NCBI GenBank assembly: GCA_016839945.1
Contig: JAEOTE010000093.1
Span: 1 to 13,164 of the forward strand
Direction of reading: 5' to 3'
Source of the DNA: Candidatus Heimdallarchaeota archaeon
Lineage (GTDB): Archaea > Asgardarchaeota > Heimdallarchaeia > Heimdallarchaeales > Heimdallarchaeaceae
DNA length: 13,164 nucleotides
Shown one piece after another: positions 1,230 through 13,164 of the stretch (position 1 is its first letter; each line of letters starts with the position of its first letter). Both the position numbers and the translations under genes were made by a program. Under the pieces are notes generated by a model. It was not told the origin of the DNA. It made no database searches and saw only the letters and a program-made list of their open reading frames with translations.

Positions 1230-2114
1230 GTGACTATCCCTGCATTTTTGTCATTTATAGAAGGCGGGGATAGAGTTGTGGGATATGTTCAGCTTATTGA
1301 TGGAGATGAAACTTTCCATTTTGAGAAAAAAATGTCCACTTTTCGTCATATTACTATAGGTTTCATAAGAAGTTCTCTTCCAGGAAAAGAGTTACCTAAT
1401 AGAGTTAAAATCACGATTCAGTATGTTCATAAAGCTGTTGAGGAAGGATTGAGTTTCAATTTAGTTGGTTATAAGAAAGACGATGGAAACTATATAATGA
1501 ACTATTCAACAGCTAAACCAAATTCTTCTATTCAGTTTAGATTGGATACTTTTACTGAAGAGTTTGTAAGTGGATATTTTGAATCCAAAAATACTGAAGT
1601 TAATCTTTTCTTAGATCCTATTTATGATGAAGAGAGCAAGAAATGGATAATTCCTGTATTTATCCCAATTCAAGATGAAATGGGAGGAAACATTCCTGTT
1701 ATTCTTTATCTTATTCTTATTCAAGACTACTATCAGAAATTCAATGATACATTTGAGAAAATCTCCAAACTTCTTCTTCGTTTTAGTAATTGGTTTTTCG
1801 ATATCAATGACTTCAATAAAGAAAACATGTCCAAATTATCATCACAGTTGAATGATTTATTAGATAAAAATATTGAACCTGAATATTTTGAAATGGGAAA
1901 GGTGCTTCAACTCCCAGATTTGGATAGAGGTATACTTGTTACTGTTTTGAAAGAACACAAAAGTGGAGGAATAACTCTCTCTTTACTTTCAAAACAACTC
2001 CAAGAAACACCACAGAATGTCTCAGCAAAAGTAGATGAACTGATTAAAAAAGGAATATTAAGGAAATACAAAGATAATGATCAGACAATTATTGACACTC
2101 TTTGGATTGTTTAA
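1230..2114 (+). CDS. Putative transcriptional regulator with a C-terminal winged helix-turn-helix and an uncharacterised N-terminal alpha/beta sensor region (true start probably 1179 or 1182)
   Basis: C-terminal LPDLDRGILVTVLKEHKSGGITLSLLSKQLQETPQNVSAKVDELIKKGILRK has MarR/TrmB-type wHTH spacing. No transmembrane segment. Confidence 0.7.
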   Translation: MTIPAFLSFIEGGDRVVGYVQLIDGDETFHFEKKMSTFRHITIGFIRSSLPGKELPNRVKITIQYVHKAVEEGLSFNLVGYKKDDGNYIMNYSTAKPNSSIQFRLDTFTEEFVSGYFESKNTEVNLFLDPIYDEESKKWIIPVFIPIQDEMGGNIPVILYLILIQDYYQKFNDTFEKISKLLLRFSNWFFDINDFNKENMSKLSSQLNDLLDKNIEPEYFEMGKVLQLPDLDRGILVTVLKEHKSGGITLSLLSKQLQETPQNVSAKVDELIKKGILRKYKDNDQTIIDTLWIV

Positions 2115-3205
2115 GGTATTATTTCAGTTGTGTTGTTATATGTAGGATAATTAAACATTTCTCGACTGATTATCCCTTTGTTAATAAGATCTTCAACTTC
2201 CGATTTAATTGCTGTTAATTCCTTTATTAGGTGCTTAACTGTTTTGCAGACTAACTCAAAACCTTCCTCTCCCCAAAGTTTGTACATATTAGCAAAAAGA
2301 CAACGACCTCCACAAAAATCATAAACATCACAAGTGTTACATGGTTCTTGGATTTTTACGGAATTCTTTATTTCATCAATTTTTGAGGTATAGATATCTC
2401 CAACCACTGTATGCTCATACTCTGGCGGTAATGGGCAAAACGTGATTTTTCCATCTGTTCTTATTGAAAAACTAGTTAAACCCGCCTGACACGGAAGATC
2501 TGTTTTAGTATTATTCAAGATATGCTTGAAAATTCCTATAAATGGTACTATTCCTTTAACCTCTCCTTCTCTCATCTTTTCTAACCAATACTGTATCAGC
2601 TTTGTTATTCCTTGTTTATATTCTTCTACCCAATCTGGAAAATCATCCCATCGTGTTTCCATCCCTTCATCCCATTGACAGTCAAGTTGGAAATGAACAT
2701 TATCAAAAGAAAGTTCTTCAGTATTCAGTAGATGAAGAACATCTTCAGATATGCTGGATCCTTGTGTAATTGCCATTCTAGCAACTAAATCACCCTTAAA
2801 ACCTCTTATCCTAATATCTTCAATATTCTTTGTTATTTCCTGATATACTCCTTTGCTTCTGTTTCGGTCAGTTATTGCTTTATCACCATCAAGAGATACC
2901 AGAATAGTAGATAAACGTTTTAATTGTCTAGTTGGGATTCTATGCATTAAAAGACCGTTAGTCTGTATAGTAAAATGCTCAGCTTCAATTGAATCCATAA
3001 TATTTTCTATTAAACTGAAATTTAGAAGCGGTTCACCACCATAAAATGCAATCGTTGGTTTCATATCTTGTTTCAAGAATTCTTTTAATTCTTCAACACT
3101 CCAGTCAGGCTCAATTGGGAGTAATGGAGAAGGTTCATTCTGACAATATTCGCAACATAAATTACAAGCATTTGTCGTAATAATGAACCAATTCGTTTTT
3201 ACCAC
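2111..3205 (-). CDS. Radical SAM/SPASM-domain protein, TIGR04084 (AF_0577) family
   Basis: CNLCCEYC (CxxxCxxC), FYGGEPLL, QTNG and VSLDG motifs; SPASM-like cysteines (CQAG, FCP, CNTCDVYDFCGGRC); C-terminal NNTTEIIP typical of this archaeal family. Confidence 0.9.
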   Translation of the reverse strand: MVKTNWFIITTNACNLCCEYCQNEPSPLLPIEPDWSVEELKEFLKQDMKPTIAFYGGEPLLNFSLIENIMDSIEAEHFTIQTNGLLMHRIPTRQLKRLSTILVSLDGDKAITDRNRSKGVYQEITKNIEDIRIRGFKGDLVARMAITQGSSISEDVLHLLNTEELSFDNVHFQLDCQWDEGMETRWDDFPDWVEEYKQGITKLIQYWLEKMREGEVKGIVPFIGIFKHILNNTKTDLPCQAGLTSFSIRTDGKITFCPLPPEYEHTVVGDIYTSKIDEIKNSVKIQEPCNTCDVYDFCGGRCLFANMYKLWGEEGFELVCKTVKHLIKELTAIKSEVEDLINKGIISREMFNYPTYNNTTEIIP

Positions 3206-3375: not shown

Positions 3376-3705
3376 ATGAGTCAATCTAATTTCTGTGAGT
3401 ACTGTGGAGCAAAAAACAAACCAGATAATAGATTCTGTGAATCATGTGGTCAAGCACTAATTGACTCTTCTGATTCTATTCCACAAACAAGCTCACAATA
3501 CACTCCTTATCAATCATCAAGAACTAGTGTAAGTACTTCTGGAAGTTATGATGCATTACCTAGCCAACAATCCCCTTATTTGCCACAAAAGAAGCCAGGA
3601 CTACCAAGTATTGTAAAAGCTTTGATCATAATTTTCTTTATTGGAATACCAGGTTTATTTTTCTTAATTTTCTTTGTACTTAGAGATCTTATTTTCCCGT
3701 ATTAA
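3376..3705 (+). CDS. Zinc-ribbon protein with S/T/P/Q-rich linker and C-terminal transmembrane anchor
   Basis: CEYCGAKNKPDNRFCESCG (zinc_ribbon_2 pattern), a low-complexity linker and a hydrophobic C-terminus. TATA-like TTTTATATAT lies about 30 nt upstream. Confidence 0.85.
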   Translation: MSQSNFCEYCGAKNKPDNRFCESCGQALIDSSDSIPQTSSQYTPYQSSRTSVSTSGSYDALPSQQSPYLPQKKPGLPSIVKALIIIFFIGIPGLFFLIFFVLRDLIFPY

Positions 3706-3911: not shown

Positions 3912-4892
3912 GTGGATAGATTGAAGATACTAATAACAACAAAGAATGGGGAATTGTTATTTCAATATGACAGTTTTAGTGAGAGCCAGGTTCATGATAA
4001 CGCTCTAGTTACTGGTCTCATTAGTGCAATTGTAGCTTTATCCTCAGAAGTTGTTTATTCCTTCCCCAGAGAAATTGAATTTGAAGGGAAAATCCTCTAT
4101 TTCTACACCGAAAATGAATTTATTGCTGCCTTATTAGTAGATATTGAATCCCCGTTCAATGGTGATCTCCTTCCTATCCTTCTTGCTGAATTTAGATCAG
4201 TTCAAGAAAAACACAATTTCCATATGTTCCAAGCTTTAAGGTATGAAAAAGAAATTTCAGATAAAATTAAATCAGCTTTAGCTGAATACCTTTCCAATTT
4301 GCAAAATAATATGACATCGATACTTGAAAAAACAGATCTGACAGATTCTAAATCCATAATTAAGCTGAAAAACGTTGCACGAGATGTTATGTTTGATGGA
4401 CCACGAGAATTTCTTTCGTTTGATGTAATAAATCGTCTCTTACCTGAAGGTTTTGATAAAATGCTTTATGCTCTAGTTGTTGGTCACCCTATTGTTGTTT
4501 CAGGAAATAGAAGCATCGTAGAACCTATGATACACTCTTTACGCCTTCTTTCACCAACTAGAATGTTAAAAGTAAAGCAATGGTCATTTGATTACAAAGA
4601 TGGGTATGATATTCTCGGAACAAATAAAATTCAAGGTTTGATTCCATCTTACAACTTCCTAATTGCAAATATAGATGAAGGTGTAGTTTTTGGTGGAAAA
4701 TCCTCATCATATTTCCAGGATATATCCAAACAGCTTTCAAATCTAAATGCGATGGAAGCTTATACCTTACTTAGAACGGAATTAGATTGGATTTTCAAAG
4801 CTATGAAATCACTTTCTATCAAAGCTCACTCTAAAGATTCATTACCTCTTGAAAAACAAATGATACTATTCGAATTACTCAAGAGATTGTAA
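3912..4892 (+). CDS. Longin (uDENN)-plus-DENN-core-like protein (folliculin/SMCR8/C9orf72-like architecture)
   Basis: Residues ~1-125 show the longin/roadblock pattern (ILITTKNGELLF; ALVTGLISAIVALSSEV; short beta strands; closing helices). Residues ~170-300 contain FDKMLYALVVGHPIVVSGNRSIVEPMIHSLRLLSP...YDILG...LIANID, resembling the cDENN core, followed by a helical tail. Confidence 0.7.
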   Translation: MDRLKILITTKNGELLFQYDSFSESQVHDNALVTGLISAIVALSSEVVYSFPREIEFEGKILYFYTENEFIAALLVDIESPFNGDLLPILLAEFRSVQEKHNFHMFQALRYEKEISDKIKSALAEYLSNLQNNMTSILEKTDLTDSKSIIKLKNVARDVMFDGPREFLSFDVINRLLPEGFDKMLYALVVGHPIVVSGNRSIVEPMIHSLRLLSPTRMLKVKQWSFDYKDGYDILGTNKIQGLIPSYNFLIANIDEGVVFGGKSSSYFQDISKQLSNLNAMEAYTLLRTELDWIFKAMKSLSIKAHSKDSLPLEKQMILFELLKRL

Positions 4893-4937
4893 TTGAATAA
4901 GACTTATAATCATCTTTACAAAATTATAATTACCTAA

Positions 4938-5291
4938 ATGAGTTCTTCAAAGAAGCAAAAATTAATAGCTTGGACAAGTTCATTACGTTTTAAAAAACAG
5001 TCCTTAGCTGGTAAAATAATTCTATTCATTACTATTCTTTTGTTTGGAAGTTTTGTCATTTTTAACTTCTTCATACTTATTGTAGGTAGATGGGATGAAT
5101 TAGGAATTTATTCTATTTGGATCTTCTTTGGCTGGTTGTTTCTGATTGTACTAATTTATATAAGTGTTAAACTGATTTCTATGGTGGTGCATAGGGGAAG
5201 CATAGAAATCCAAGAAATGGAGAATAAGGAAAAACTTAATGATGGTGTAAAGTCTGAACATGATGAAGAAGTGAAGAATAATGATGCTTAA
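4938..5291 (+). CDS. Small membrane protein, 2 TM helices, basic N-terminus, acidic C-tail
   Basis: Two hydrophobic segments; ATG start; TTATAAT at 4904-4910 upstream; stop overlaps the next start. Confidence 0.8.
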   Translation: MSSSKKQKLIAWTSSLRFKKQSLAGKIILFITILLFGSFVIFNFFILIVGRWDELGIYSIWIFFGWLFLIVLIYISVKLISMVVHRGSIEIQEMENKEKLNDGVKSEHDEEVKNNDA

Positions 5292-5583
5292 GGTTACTCC
5301 CAAAAAAAATAAGTGGTATATGATTACAATTGGGATAATTTATGGACTTCTTATTGTCAGTATCCTTATTCTTGCTGCTTTTACTAGAGATACAGTGTTC
5401 TGGGTTATAGCAGTAATTATTGATATAGCAGTCATACTTCTAGGAGTAAGAGCTTTCATAAAGATGAATAAACCCCTCATAGTAACTCCTCCAATGGAAG
5501 GAGCTCTTGAGTACTATGGTGGAAAAACTAATAAAAGCGAAGAGAAAAGTGCCGAAGTGAATCCTGATGTTGAAGAACACTAA
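5281..5583 (+). CDS. Small membrane protein, 2 TM helices, acidic C-tail
   Basis: Two hydrophobic segments; overlaps both neighbours (start 5281 or 5284). Confidence 0.8.
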   Translation: MMLKVTPKKNKWYMITIGIIYGLLIVSILILAAFTRDTVFWVIAVIIDIAVILLGVRAFIKMNKPLIVTPPMEGALEYYGGKTNKSEEKSAEVNPDVEEH

Positions 5584-5827
5584 GAAACTGGGAGAAACAT
5601 ATATCGTTCTCTTATCGAGTCTCTTTATGTTGGTTGTGGGAGTAATCATTATCATGATTTTATTAGTTATTGAAAGAAATACTCTTGATTGGGCCCCTGA
5701 AATATGGGGAGTAGTCTTTTTTGTCTTAAGTTGTATTTTTGGCATCTGCTTCCATTTTGGTTATGAGATAATAAAGAAGATAAACAAAAAGAGAGAAGAG
5801 ACAGCTGAACCAAATGTTGAAGAATGA
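5567..5827 (+). CDS. Small membrane protein, 2 TM helices, acidic C-tail
   Basis: Two hydrophobic segments; 17-nt overlap with the upstream gene; same architecture as the two preceding ORFs. Confidence 0.75.
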   Translation: MLKNTKKLGETYIVLLSSLFMLVVGVIIIMILLVIERNTLDWAPEIWGVVFFVLSCIFGICFHFGYEIIKKINKKREETAEPNVEE

Positions 5828-5900
5828 CATCTATTGATGTTCGGAGGGTAATAAAGGAGTCTGACACAGCTTTAAATATCAAAGTCTTGATGTTAGATTG

Positions 5901-6146
5901 ATGTCTAATCCCGACAAAATACAGACCAACCGTGTTTTCGAGAAATCAATCCCACTTATACATAAATGCATGAATGAACGGGTTAGCATCACTTTGCTCT
6001 TATCAACCTTGAAACTGATAGAAAGGGGATTGATAAAAGAAGCCGATGACTTAGTCAAATTTATGGAAAGAAGGGCTGAACTAAATCCGAATCGATCACA
6101 AGATGCTCAAAGAATTCGAGAACTGATTCTTCAATTATACTTCTGA
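5901..6146 (+). CDS. Small soluble helical hypothetical protein (81 aa; ORF track start 5898)
   Basis: ATG at 5901 preceded by TATA-like TTTAAATA (5871-5878) at leaderless spacing; amphipathic helical composition; 16-nt convergent overlap with acdA. Confidence 0.65.
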   Translation: MSNPDKIQTNRVFEKSIPLIHKCMNERVSITLLLSTLKLIERGLIKEADDLVKFMERRAELNPNRSQDAQRIRELILQLYF

Positions 6147-7516
6147 AGCAACTTCTTTCTTTCCATAAGTACTTTTGCAGCAAAAGCTGCTTCTTTTGGT
6201 GAAAAGAAAATTGGTGCTTTTTCTTCTTCTGCTATCTTCTTTATTTCTTCAATCAGAAAACCACTCATGAATACAGGTAGAATAGGTTTCTTTCTTTGTG
6301 TTTCATTCCATGCTCTAATTACTCCTTTGAAATGTTCATCAGGTTGCATCTCAAGGAAAGTAGGTATAACACAACAAGGCGCAACAATATCGATGTTAGG
6401 ATCTTCTAACATGGCTTTTGTAACTTGATAAAATGATTCTCCATTAGCTCCAGCAATCATGTCTAGGGGGTTAACTTTCTTAACCAAAGGAATAACATAT
6501 GGATCAATTATTTGTTTGAAATCTTCAGAAAATTCCGCTAATTCCATATCCAATTCTTCAGCTGCATCACTTAATAAAACGGCACTCCCACCTGAGTTGG
6601 TTAAAATTCCTATCCTCTTACCTTCTGGTAATGGTAAGAAAGAGAATGCTTTGATAGCAATAATATAATCGTTAAGTGATTCACACAACGTTGCACCAGA
6701 TTGTTTTATAGCTGCTTTGAGCGAAGTATAATCTGTAGCTATAGAACCTGTATGAGAGCTAGCACTTTTCATTCCTGCTGAAGTTCTACCTCCTTTTAAT
6801 ATCACAGTTGGTTTTTCTTTTGCTATTTCTTTCATTTTTGTGTAGAATGCTCTACCATCTACAACATTCTCTAGATATATACAGACAACAGAAGTTGAAT
6901 CATCATTCTTGAAATAACCAAGTAAATCAGTCAAATTAACATCAGCCATGTTTCCTAGATTTGCAAATTTTGAGAATCCTAAGCCTTGAGACCACATCTC
7001 ATAAAGACATGCAGCACCAAAAGAACCAGATTGAGTCACCATACTTGTTGTTCCTTTCAATGGTGTTAATACGAAGGAAGCATTCATACCAATATCTAGG
7101 TTCATTAAGCCAACACAATTTGGACCAATGACTCTAATGTTAGCTTCTTTTGCTTTTTTCACCATTTCTTGTTCAATCTTCCTCCCTTCTTCATTTATCT
7201 CTGCAAAACCAGCAGAAACAACTATGATTCTTTTAACTTTCTTTTCGATGCATTGTTCAATAACTATAGGAACAGCTTTAGCAGGAACAAGAATAATTGC
7301 AAGGTCTACCTCTTTCTCTATATCGTTAATTGTTGGATAGCTTTTGAGTCCACAGATAGAATCAGCTTTAGGGTTTACTGGGAAAATCTCGCTCTCAAGA
7401 TTCTTATTTTCAAGTAAGTTCACTGTAACTGCATTTCCAAATTTTTTTGAATCTGCAGTTGCTCCAATAACTGCAATAGATTTAGGATAGAAGAATAGTT
7501 TAACCATAATTCTCAT
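6131..7516 (-). CDS. acdA: Acetate--CoA ligase (ADP-forming) alpha subunit / NDP-forming acyl-CoA synthetase alpha
   Basis: FFYPKSIAVIGAT CoA-binding start, SAGFAE, GPNCVG, QSGS, phospho-His motif ASSHTGS, TNSGG, NPLD. No fused ATP-grasp beta domain. Start may be ATG 7507. Confidence 0.92.
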   Translation of the reverse strand: MRIMVKLFFYPKSIAVIGATADSKKFGNAVTVNLLENKNLESEIFPVNPKADSICGLKSYPTINDIEKEVDLAIILVPAKAVPIVIEQCIEKKVKRIIVVSAGFAEINEEGRKIEQEMVKKAKEANIRVIGPNCVGLMNLDIGMNASFVLTPLKGTTSMVTQSGSFGAACLYEMWSQGLGFSKFANLGNMADVNLTDLLGYFKNDDSTSVVCIYLENVVDGRAFYTKMKEIAKEKPTVILKGGRTSAGMKSASSHTGSIATDYTSLKAAIKQSGATLCESLNDYIIAIKAFSFLPLPEGKRIGILTNSGGSAVLLSDAAEELDMELAEFSEDFKQIIDPYVIPLVKKVNPLDMIAGANGESFYQVTKAMLEDPNIDIVAPCCVIPTFLEMQPDEHFKGVIRAWNETQRKKPILPVFMSGFLIEEIKKIAEEEKAPIFFSPKEAAFAAKVLMERKKLLQKYN

Positions 7517-7595
7517 TTCAACAAAAAGTAATCACTTTTATTTCTTTCTTTGTGAATTGAAATTAATAAAATAAAATCGAATTTTTAGATATTGA

Positions 7596-8564
7596 TTATT
7601 TGAATCCTCTTCTGAGTTCATATTCAGAAGGATCTATTCCTAAACTGTGAGTGACTATTCCTTCTAAGATACCGAATTCTTTCATTCCTTTAACGTAGTC
7701 ACTAATTACATCTATTTGTCTTCTTGCTTCTTCTTGACATTGATCCTTAGAAATTATCATTGAATAAATGTACTCTTCATCAGTTTTGATAATATATTTA
7801 TAGTCTCCAGCAGACAAATATTGAAGCAAACCTCTTTTACCAAACAACTGCTGTGAGAAGCTCTCTATAGCTGATAAGAATCCAGCTAAAAGTGAAGGTT
7901 CTTCTTCTATTCCTAATTTGTCTAGTTCCAGAATTGGAAAACCCTCGATGTCAGCAAGCATAAATAACAAAGGATCAACTTTTCTCTTAACAGCTAATTT
8001 GTTTGTTTGTTTTGTAAGCCAATTAACAGCATTTTCCACATTTTCTCCATTTTTCATGCTTGTCTTGAAGAATTGGTAAGAAGCTTTTTCTTTCTCTGCT
8101 AACTTATAGAGTTCTAGTTTGTTAATTATTGTCTCAAGATCAATACTATCTTCTAAATCAGATTTATTACACAGAAAAAGAATGAGAAACTCATCTTGAG
8201 GATCTTTTTGGTTTATGCTTTTCCAGAATTCTTTCTTAGATTCATCAAAAAGAGCGGGATTAGCAGAATCAATAACAAATACTATACCATAAGCAAGCTT
8301 CACATATGTCTCCCAGATAGTTTTTCTATACGTTATATGACCTCCTAAATCAAATATATCGAAGCGTACATCCCCAATATTTGCGGTTTCAAATTGCAAT
8401 CCCATAGTGGCTTTGGTGAACTTGAACTCTCCAGTTTGTAAGCGTTTTACAAAAGTTGATTTTCCAGCCTGAGCTAAGCCTATTATCACTAAGGGTATGC
8501 CTTTTTTTTCAAATGAAAGTATCTTTGAAGATTCTTGCTCATTCAACTTATATCCATCCCGCAT
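7596..8564 (-). CDS. Arf/Sar1-family small GTPase fused to a C-terminal longin/roadblock-like domain
   Basis: G1 GLAQAGKST, G2 ATMG, G3 FDLGGH, WETY, GIVFVIDS, G4 NKSD, G5 TSMK. Residues ~198-322 contain FMLADIEGFPI and SLLAGFLSAIESFSQQL plus a beta meander typical of Asgard longin/roadblock-like domains. Confidence 0.9.
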   Translation of the reverse strand: MRDGYKLNEQESSKILSFEKKGIPLVIIGLAQAGKSTFVKRLQTGEFKFTKATMGLQFETANIGDVRFDIFDLGGHITYRKTIWETYVKLAYGIVFVIDSANPALFDESKKEFWKSINQKDPQDEFLILFLCNKSDLEDSIDLETIINKLELYKLAEKEKASYQFFKTSMKNGENVENAVNWLTKQTNKLAVKRKVDPLLFMLADIEGFPILELDKLGIEEEPSLLAGFLSAIESFSQQLFGKRGLLQYLSAGDYKYIIKTDEEYIYSMIISKDQCQEEARRQIDVISDYVKGMKEFGILEGIVTHSLGIDPSEYELRRGFK

Positions 8565-11990: not shown

Positions 11991-13164
11991 ATGAAAGAAG
12001 GTATAACATTTGACGATGTGCTTTTAATTCCGAAATTATCCTCTGTAAACTCAAGAAAAGATATAGACACTTCTACTTATCTTTCTCGAAATATTAAACT
12101 TAATATCCCTATAGTTGCTTCAAATATGGATACAGTTTGCGAGAACCAAATGGCTATAGTCATGGCTCAGCAAGGAGGGATTGGAATAATCCATCGTTTC
12201 ATGTCTGTTGAAGATCAGGTTCAGGAAGTAGTTAGAGTAAAAAGATCTGAGATGTTCAGAATAGATCACCCATATTGTCTTTCTCCTTCTCATACTCTAG
12301 ATGATGCACGAAATATGATGGAAGAAAAGGGTATTTCTGGGATTTTAGTTACAGAAGAAGATGAGAAATTAGTTGGAATACTCACTACACGAGACTTAAT
12401 CTTTGAGGAAAATGGATTTACAAAAATATCAGAATTGATGTCTACTGATTTAGTTACAGCAAATCCTGATATAACAATTGAAGAAGCTGAAAAAGTGCTT
12501 CAAAAAAATCGAATTGAGAAACTCCCTCTGGTTGATAATCATAAAAAACTGAAAGGTCTCATAACATCTAAAGATATTATAAAAAGCAAAATACTTCCTG
12601 ACGCATCAAAAGACGCAAAGGGACGTCTTCTTGTTGGTGCTGCAATAGGAGTAAAAGGAGATTTTCTAAAAAGAGCTGAAGAGCTGATCAATGTAAATTG
12701 TGATGCACTTGTTTTAGATATTGCACATGGACATTCTGATTTAGCAATAAATGCTATGAAGGAAATAAAAAAGAAGCTTGGAGATGTAGAGTTAATAGCG
12801 GGAAATGTTGCAACAGCTAAAGGAACAAAAGATCTTATAGAGGTTGGAGCAGATGGGATTAAAGTTGGAGTAGGTCCAGGTAGTATTTGTGTTACTAGAA
12901 TCGTAGCAGGTTCAGGAGTACCTCAATTAACAGCAATTACTGATAGTGTCTCAGCAGCGAAAAACAATGATATTCCAATCATTGCTGATGGTGGAATTCG
13001 TACTTCTGGTGATGTAGCAAAAGCAATAGCTGCTGGAGCTAATACAGTTATGATAGGCGCACTTTTAGCAGGAACAGAGGAAAGTCCAGGAACTTCGATT
13101 TTAAGACAAGGGAGACGCTATAAAGTTGTCAGAGGAATGGCTAGCACATTTGCTACTTTAGGAA
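11991..13164 (+). CDS. guaB: IMP dehydrogenase / GMP reductase family protein with CBS pair, 3'-truncated by the window edge (guaB-like; motifs favour GMP reductase)
   Basis: Not in the ORF track; translated by hand. [34 protein letters not shown], two CBS repeats, DIAHGHS, AGNVAT, catalytic loop [11 protein letters not shown] (Cys codon 12888-12890), IADGGI, RGMAS. No stop before 13164. Confidence 0.93.

Follow-up and report, generated by a model that had tools for sequence, protein, structure and literature searches.

A Heimdallarchaeaceae locus with a folliculin-like longin-DENN protein, small membrane proteins and an Arf-longin GTPase: a candidate regulator/GTPase pair

The longin-DENN protein and the Arf-longin GTPase

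The window considered here is the whole of a 13,164-bp contig (C66; JAEOTE010000093.1) from the 3.0-Mb, 186-contig, 88%-complete genome of a Candidatus Heimdallarchaeota archaeon (GCA_016839945.1). Its G+C content is about 32% from end to end, and scans for Rfam families and tRNAs found none in it. Between positions 3912 and 8564 it encodes a folliculin-like protein that joins a longin domain to a DENN domain, three small proteins with two transmembrane (TM) segments each (hereafter 2-TM proteins), and an Arf-family GTPase with a C-terminal longin domain of its own. A sequence-only reading had gathered these genes into about 4.7 kb and had noted that the two longin-bearing products are encoded on opposite strands with acdA in between; the map of open reading frames (ORFs) and the domain scans place each of them where that reading had put it, and the longin-DENN and GTPase genes are convergent. 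Below, we describe the two proteins and their neighbors and weigh the proposal that they constitute a cognate regulator/GTPase pair, to which we assign a probability of roughly 0.4; the domain architectures, the packing of the genes and the conservation of their layout are directly observed, whereas tethering, regulation and the pairing itself are proposals.

The first of the two genes (3912..4892, forward strand) specifies a protein of 326 amino acids (aa), for which an AlphaFold2 (AF2) model built on 25 orthologues attains a mean predicted local distance difference test score (pLDDT) of 79. The model displays both features that define the DENN superfamily fold, namely an N-terminal longin (uDENN) domain and an alpha/beta core with a helical dDENN region. 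More specifically, residues 1-103 (3912..4220) adopt a beta-beta-alpha-beta-beta-beta-alpha longin topology, and a helical linker leads from these to an alpha/beta-plus-helical domain at residues 164-326 (4401..4889), which corresponds to the DENN core (cDENN + dDENN). In Foldseek searches with this model FLCN is recovered first (6ulg_L, E 2.7e-7), followed by FNIP2, DENND1A/B, C9orf72/SMCR8 and DENND10. VIA-align superimposes the DENN half on DENND10 (8p0v_M; Z 13.7, 159 aligned, root-mean-square deviation (rmsd) 3.0, model residues 168-326), the C-terminal domain of FLCN (3v42_B; Z 12.8, 163 aligned, rmsd 3.4) and DENND1B (Z 10.7, 163 aligned), and the longin half on Sec22b (1ifq_A; Z 12.7, 121 aligned, rmsd 2.9, model residues 2-127), synbindin (Z 12.5), AP sigma (Z 11.9) and Fuzzy (Z 11.1), with the entire model matching FLCN (6nzd_H) at Z 12.6 over 288 residues. 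At the level of sequence, the curated Pfam cut-off for the DENN and Folliculin families is not reached (Folliculin_C E 1.6e-3, 18.5 bits against 27); 20 of the 25 orthologues match Folliculin_C, all below threshold (best E 9.8e-5), and the family profile finds no more than a chance-level match among the sequences of solved structures (E 0.16). As modeled, the product is a complete longin-plus-DENN protein, and the earlier call of a longin+DENN-like domain composition is correct by AF2 topology, Foldseek and VIA-align alike.

The longin-DENN orthogroup spans 33 database clusters, and those that are named all belong to Heimdallarchaeaceae or Heimdallarchaeota; among 1.84 billion database representatives, just four reach E<=1e-30 to this protein. 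The window holds no second longin-DENN gene, and two further DENN-core ORFs are present elsewhere in the genome.

The second gene (7596..8564, reverse strand) encodes a GTPase of 322 aa that was earlier described as a small GTPase with its own longin- or roadblock-like domain, a description that the Pfam Arf match, the AF2 topology and the domain hits among its orthologues all endorse. Its G domain (residues 19-193; 7986..8510) is recognized by Pfam Arf with an E-value of 1.3e-34 (119.6 bits, cut-off 22.3). Among solved sequences HodArfR1 comes closest (8oul_A, E 8.7e-29), and when the G domain only is superimposed by VIA-align it matches HodArfR1 (8ouk) with Z 23.9 and Sar1 (2qtv_B) with Z 21.3. 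The G1-G5 motifs are intact, and G29, G34, K35, T53, D72, G75, N133, K134, D136 and S169 are invariant in the orthologues; this is a bona fide, intact Arf-family switch. The catalytic Gln that follows the switch-II DxxG is replaced by a nearly invariant His76, a residue also present at this position in Sar1 and SR-beta.

An Arf-type N-terminal amphipathic helix was not found in this protein: about 8-18 polar residues precede a conserved F-x-K-K-G stretch, and this N-terminal region is poorly conserved, with a mean hydrophobicity of -0.5 and pLDDT below 50. Such a short polar N-terminus calls for another route to the membrane, and the GTPase probably reaches membranes or partners by means of its longin domain. 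That domain (residues 195-322; 7599..7982) is modeled by AF2 as beta-beta-alpha-beta-beta-beta-alpha-alpha, a longin topology. Across 10 orthologous C-terminal domains, Pfam reports Fuz_longin_1 in seven (best E 4.2e-6), Robl_LC7 in three and MAPKK1_Int in two, and the profile of the domain finds only a chance-level match among the sequences of solved structures (best E 0.97). The GTPase shows no Gtr1_RagA match at E<=0.1, and no Rag figures among its best 60 solved sequences. The model of the whole protein aligns with LokiRagO (8yl2_B) over 302 columns (Foldseek E 5e-13, TM-score 0.40). Beyond the Heimdallarchaeaceae, relatives of this GTPase share at most 36% identity with it.

Conservation of the locus and its smaller genes

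To call orthologues we required E<=1e-100 for the longin-DENN protein, or a partial match at a contig end, and E<=1e-90 for the GTPase. By these cut-offs the longin-DENN protein has orthologues in 28 of the 31 genomes of the Heimdallarchaeaceae and the GTPase in 25 of them, and no longin-DENN orthologue was recovered from the 52 other genomes of the class, in which the best match (2.7e-14) covers the DENN core only. Wherever both orthologues lie on one contig they are 2.4-3.3 kb apart and convergent (21 of 21 genomes), and this holds in two genomes assembled into one contig each (3.1 and 3.3 Mb). In four genomes the two genes are on different contigs, near contig ends, and in four only one of them was found. 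A scan of metagenomes added 16 loci, mostly on contigs of 1-6 kb, with the same local order; one of these, L047, is alone in reaching the GTPase, and there the full layout is present with the genes convergent. The sequence-only reading had held that a lack of conserved linkage in related genomes would tell against the pairing; linkage is instead conserved in all 21 family genomes with the pair on one contig, as well as in L047.

A gene-by-gene comparison was made over nine loci from four genera, with 49-61% identity. It yields a collinear run of radical-SAM (S-adenosylmethionine) gene, zinc-ribbon gene (variably present), longin-DENN gene, 2-TM genes, an 82-aa ORF, acdA, the GTPase gene and a short-chain dehydrogenase/reductase (SDR) gene. 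The block from longin-DENN to GTPase is unbroken in all nine, insertions of 1.3-4 kb occur at both outer junctions only, and the genes beyond the radical-SAM and SDR junctions vary between loci.

Immediately downstream of the longin-DENN gene, and on the same strand, lie the genes for the three 2-TM proteins, of 117 aa (4938..5291), 100 aa (5281..5583) and 86 aa (5567..5827). A gap of 46 nt separates the first from the longin-DENN gene, and the second and third start 11 and 17 nt inside the gene that precedes each. In each of them a basic N-terminus accompanies two hydrophobic segments, and two of the three, among them the 117-aa protein, have an acidic tail; the 100-aa and 86-aa proteins are 29% identical over 104 columns (E 1e-5 without composition correction). 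A 2-TM homologue is found downstream of longin-DENN at each of the nine genome loci, co-directional at eight and on the opposite strand in genus g4 (L007), and on nine of 11 metagenome contigs, the two misses having less than 240 nt of downstream sequence. The copy number of these genes varies between loci, and no paralogues of the 2-TM proteins were found elsewhere in the genome. Because the 2-TM genes are packed alongside it, are free of paralogues and are present at every locus, the longin-DENN unit can be read as a soluble regulator whose membrane partners are dedicated to it. Hence, we infer that the 2-TM proteins may act as membrane tethers, a role that fits both their operon-like packing and their restriction to this locus.

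The conserved soluble 82-aa ORF that follows (5898..6146, forward strand) has homologues at all nine genome loci (E down to 1e-33), and its 3' end overlaps the stop region of the convergent acdA by 16 nt. It has no match in Pfam or NCBIfam, and its best score in the ESM Atlas (0.77) gives an uninformative lead. The gene acdA itself (6131..7516, reverse strand) codes for the 461-aa alpha subunit of ADP-forming acetate--CoA ligase (TIGR02717 E 2.6e-132; Pfam Succ_CoA_lig and CoA_binding_2).

On the other side of the longin-DENN gene, and outside the 3912-8564 stretch, a gene on the forward strand (3376..3705) encodes a 109-aa protein with a zinc ribbon (Pfam Zn_Ribbon_1 E 1.3e-6) and a C-terminal hydrophobic segment (residues 73-109). 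Homologues stand upstream of longin-DENN at six of the nine genome loci, with a partial match of 28 residues only at L007, and on nine of the 10 metagenome contigs that offer at least 300 nt of upstream sequence; the zinc-ribbon homologue is missing from both genus g5 loci compared. A zinc-ribbon protein also accompanies the closest paralogue of the GTPase, a 306-aa protein with 34% identity encoded on contig C68 (L037; 12888-13808, reverse strand): after it, on the same strand (12206-12799), comes a gene for a 197-aa zinc-ribbon protein with several hydrophobic segments, which echoes the zinc-ribbon/TM gene upstream of longin-DENN in the window.

Further upstream, beside the block, the window encodes a radical-SAM/SPASM protein (2111-3205, reverse strand) and a protein of 294 aa whose C-terminal part is a MarR-like winged helix (1230-2114, forward strand), both of which are syntenic in most related loci.

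Weighing a specific link between the two proteins

As part of its case for a cognate pair, the sequence-only reading had cited a first-helix signature shared by the two longin domains. The two helices do align in register (hhalign E 0.002, probability 13.7%, 80 columns). The motif that describes them (G-hydrophobic-hydrophobic-[ST]-A-[IVLM]) occurs in 34 of the 5042 ORFs of the genome, with 35 matches against 12.8 in shuffled sequences, and the ORFs that bear it include nine of the longin type, namely the pair and seven more that are found by the two profiles; some of these seven are closer to one of the partners than the partners are to each other. We accordingly rejected this motif as the mark of a cognate pair: it is a hallmark common to at least nine longin proteins of this genome. 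The register of the two helices stands, and the pair-specificity once attached to it gives way to a hallmark of a longin subfamily.

In favor of the cognate pair, all three DENN-core ORFs of the genome have a G-domain ORF within 3 kb (at 2704, 1783 and 2671 nt), as against 7.2% of random 1-kb segments, a comparison for which the 3-kb threshold was chosen post hoc and in which one of the three GTPase matches is weak. One of these DENN-core ORFs belongs to a tight same-strand run of five ORFs on contig C102 (L035, 98-4330). This run comprises a 168-aa ORF without an assigned family, a 175-aa Arf-like GTPase (Pfam Arf E 8.8e-41), a 277-aa multi-TM protein (four hydrophobic stretches, counted by eye), a flavin-reductase-like protein and a 467-aa longin-DENN protein. 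Also on this side is the published operon that combines roadblock, small GTPase and DENN genes in Asgard archaea (Liu et al., bioRxiv 10.1101/2020.10.19.343400). Further afield, among 20 DENN-like loci of other families, a small GTPase lies less than 1 kb away, and convergent, in three, and at about 5-6 kb in three more.

The chief alternative, for which we would give somewhat less than even odds, holds that the two proteins are independent paralogues whose proximity is inherited collinearity; the longin-DENN/2-TM unit would then serve another GTPase or none, and the GTPase would be a self-contained, Rag-like dimer with its partners elsewhere. Several observations weigh against a specific pairing and on the side of this alternative. 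The unrelated radical-SAM and SDR flanks keep their order equally well in the compared loci, so that the conserved layout cannot single out the pair and may be plain family-level collinearity. Both orthogroups are restricted to one family, so that their linkage spans that family alone. The genes are convergent and five genes apart, and are thus not co-transcribed. A second copy of the GTPase (48-50% identity) is found in three genomes of the same genus, on contigs without a longin-DENN match (G014:C24:5780-6709, G030:C15:36316-37242 and G024:C3:1443-2369). Other clients are available in the genome, with about 32 G-domain ORFs and five GTPase-longin paralogues, two of the latter in tandem like a Rag pair. 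A GTPase-longin neighbor was seen at none of the 20 more distant DENN-like loci, and none of 31 distant DENN-like relatives of at least 450 aa that were scanned with Pfam (7 + 24) carries a fused G domain. For the archaeon MK-D1, Tran et al. (2024, PMC10933270) note that the genes of small GTPases as a rule do not share an operon with those of roadblock or longin proteins.

The sequences of the two proteins themselves point in the same direction. The profile of the GTPase longin retrieves at least nine other longin ORFs (E down to 1e-10) and does not retrieve the DENN protein at E<=0.01, and several other longins of the genome lie nearer to it than the longin of the DENN protein does. The two longins have also diverged at unlike rates, with identity to genus g5 of 32-33% for the GTPase longin against 75-76% for the longin of the DENN protein. 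The pairwise distances of the pair are correlated with r 0.88, against 0.87-0.95 with unrelated neighbors, and over 10 loci all gene pairs give values of 0.62-0.95, rendering the distance-matrix comparison uninformative. Prediction of a complex of both full-length proteins with alignments returned scores of 0.21 and 0.01 against a mark of 0.32, which speaks neither for nor against binding.

Against the independent-paralogue explanation, on the other hand, stand the association of all three DENN-core genes with G-domain genes, as opposed to about 7% by chance, the lack of any counter-example to the layout in 21 genomes and one metagenome contig, and the fact that the block from longin-DENN to GTPase is never interrupted, yet insertions are found at both of its outer junctions. 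Of the original proposal of a cognate pair, then, the linkage has held in 21 of 21 genomes, whereas that linkage is not specific, no pair-specific co-variation emerges and the helix motif is family-wide.

A further question is what the longin-DENN protein might do to a GTPase. A GP motif is reported to mark FLCN, NPRL2, SMCR8 and C9orf72, as well as one class of longins from Asgard archaea, those of the GTPase-activating protein (GAP) type (Traffic 2025, PMC12290439). It was not found in the longin-DENN family, where G13 is invariant, E14 comes next and no column there holds a Pro, so that the site reads G-E in 25 of 25 orthologues. Given the absence of this motif, the protein falls outside the GAP-type class as described in that source, and a folliculin-type GAP mechanism is unsupported; for the same reason, an arginine-finger GAP is less likely than a guanine nucleotide exchange factor (GEF) or a scaffold akin to the DENN and Mon1-Ccz1 proteins. 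A GEF-like or platform role is therefore the better guess. The opposing idea, that the protein is a folliculin-type GAP in which an arginine from a different longin loop switches off the neighboring His-bearing GTPase, strikes us as unlikely. It can draw on R53, the sole conserved Arg in residues 1-135 (24 of 25 orthologues), which sits in an invariant F-P-R-E stretch and, judging from the secondary structure of the model, is expected to share its end of the sheet with the beta1-beta2 loop; FLCN is, in addition, the top full-length fold match. Set against these is the G-E that stands in every orthologue in place of the GP of the GAP-type longins.

Least probable of all, in our estimation, is that the GTPase is tied to acdA as a switch coupled to acetyl-CoA/acetate energy metabolism, with the longin-DENN unit unrelated: acdA does follow the GTPase gene on the reverse strand, after a gap of 79 nt, and is adjacent to it at all nine loci (gaps of 47-155 nt), but its product is an enzyme of the housekeeping type for which no GTPase partner is known, the T-rich stretch between the two genes could hold a terminator and a promoter, and the rest of the block is conserved at least as well as their adjacency.

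Returning to the cognate-pair reading, we propose that the locus may hold two conserved, convergent units of Asgard small-GTPase signaling. The first, operon-like unit would consist of the zinc-ribbon/TM protein, the longin-DENN protein, one to three (perhaps four) 2-TM hairpin proteins and the small soluble protein. In it, the 2-TM proteins would keep the longin-DENN protein, itself soluble, on the membrane, where it would regulate a small GTPase through a longin platform. The second unit would be an Arf-type switch without an amphipathic helix but with its own longin, a Rag-like build, which probably dimerizes or docks through that longin. Under the pairing proposed here, the Arf-longin GTPase would be the leading candidate client of the first unit.

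Relation to known systems and significance

Both proteins of the window belong to kinds of Asgard protein that are already in print (Liu et al., bioRxiv 10.1101/2020.10.19.343400 and Nature 2021; Tran et al. 2024, PMC10933270; Traffic 2025, PMC12290439). Liu et al. report Asgard DENN proteins, an FLCN-like longin+DENN arrangement in some Heimdallarchaea and GTPase-longin fusions, together with a conserved Asgard operon of roadblock, Rab-like GTPase and DENN genes, and they propose a GEF-like role. The window shares with that operon, as described there, the FLCN-type order of domains and the genomic linkage of a DENN gene to a small GTPase. It differs in having no LAMTOR1-like roadblock gene, in an Arf-type GTPase with a fused longin rather than a Rab-like one, in genes that are convergent rather than in an operon, and in 2-TM proteins where a tether would be expected.

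A second point of comparison is the human FLCN-FNIP2 complex with RagA/RagC and Ragulator (6ulg, 6nzd, 8dhb, 3v42). Here too the regulator is built from longin and DENN domains and the client from a G domain with a C-terminal roadblock- or longin-type domain, and the assembly is tethered to a membrane, as would be the case at this locus if the 2-TM proteins are tethers. Unlike FLCN-FNIP2, however, the longin-DENN protein has no GP motif and apparently lacks an arginine where one would be expected, and it has no partner gene of the longin-DENN type at the locus; unlike RagA/RagC, the GTPase has an Arf-like G domain and a C-terminal domain of longin rather than roadblock topology. In comparison with the Asgard GAP longins (PMC12290439), the longin-DENN protein is likewise from the Heimdall group and resembles FLCN/SMCR8, whereas the GP motif, which those longins combine with an arginine finger, is missing from it.

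As for the GTPase, the ArfRs HodArfR1 and GerdArfR1 (8ouk, 8oul, 8oum; Vargova et al., bioRxiv 10.1101/2024.02.28.582541) are the closest to its G domain in both sequence and fold. These, as presented by Vargova et al., consist of one domain and bear an N-terminal amphipathic helix that is functional, whereas the window GTPase has a polar N-terminus, a longin extension of 128 aa and His in place of Gln. GTPase-longin and GTPase-roadblock fusions have been characterized as 'Rag-like, close to Arf' (Tran et al. 2024, PMC10933270); with these fusions and with LokiRagO (8yl2) the window GTPase shares its class of architecture, while constituting a distinct orthogroup confined to the Heimdallarchaeaceae. 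In the papers searched we found no description of a layout that combines an FLCN-like longin-DENN protein devoid of the GAP motif with dedicated 2-TM proteins and a nearby Arf-longin GTPase; the supplements of preprints may list the families.

Elsewhere in the same genome, contig C71 (L036, 1-3200) carries a tandem GTPase-longin pair of Rag-like build, followed co-directionally by a third gene (ORFs 52-921, 922-1920 and 1932-2702). The first gene of the pair is cut by the start of the contig, and the second matches Pfam Arf (E 8.4e-17) and Gtr1_RagA (E 5.8e-4). The third specifies a 256-aa protein with a G-P dipeptide just before the apparent second strand, like the GAP-type longins; it has no match in Pfam, among the sequences of solved structures or to the longin-DENN family profile, and falls in an Atlas cluster of 99 Heimdall members named 'hypothetical protein' (score 0.93). 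This trio may be a better analogue of FLCN/NPRL2 and Rag than the pair in the window.

Taken at its fullest, the comparison with folliculin would make the locus an archaeal counterpart of the lysosomal folliculin-Rag-Ragulator system: a longin-DENN protein tethered by 2-TM proteins would dock, longin to longin, on an Arf GTPase of Rag-like build and set its nucleotide state, with the GTPase linked through acdA to acetyl-CoA/energy metabolism. We consider this complete picture rather unlikely.

Which proteins regulate the Arf- and Rag-like GTPases of Asgard archaea is acknowledged to be an open question. In the words of Zhu et al. (2025, PMC11914678), the identities of Asgard Arf regulators "remain to be established", and in their account, as in that of Vargova et al. 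(bioRxiv 10.1101/2024.02.28.582541), single-domain Asgard Arfs are characterized and their regulators left unidentified. A further study (Traffic 2025, PMC12290439) weighs ArfR against Rag-like GTPases as possible partners of the FLCN-type longins, and genome layout is said to seldom help in matching GTPases to regulators (Tran et al. 2024, PMC10933270). Beyond its value as a test case the locus adds little, the protein classes being in print and the evidence for pairing circumstantial, and it is not a new kind of system. What it does offer to this question is one concrete, testable pair with candidate membrane tethers, and the pair is also found in two single-contig genomes of the Heimdallarchaeaceae. 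Were the counterpart of folliculin-Rag-Ragulator to prove true, the first native regulator of an Asgard Arf would have been named, and a membrane-anchored, nutrient-signaling GTPase module would predate eukaryogenesis.

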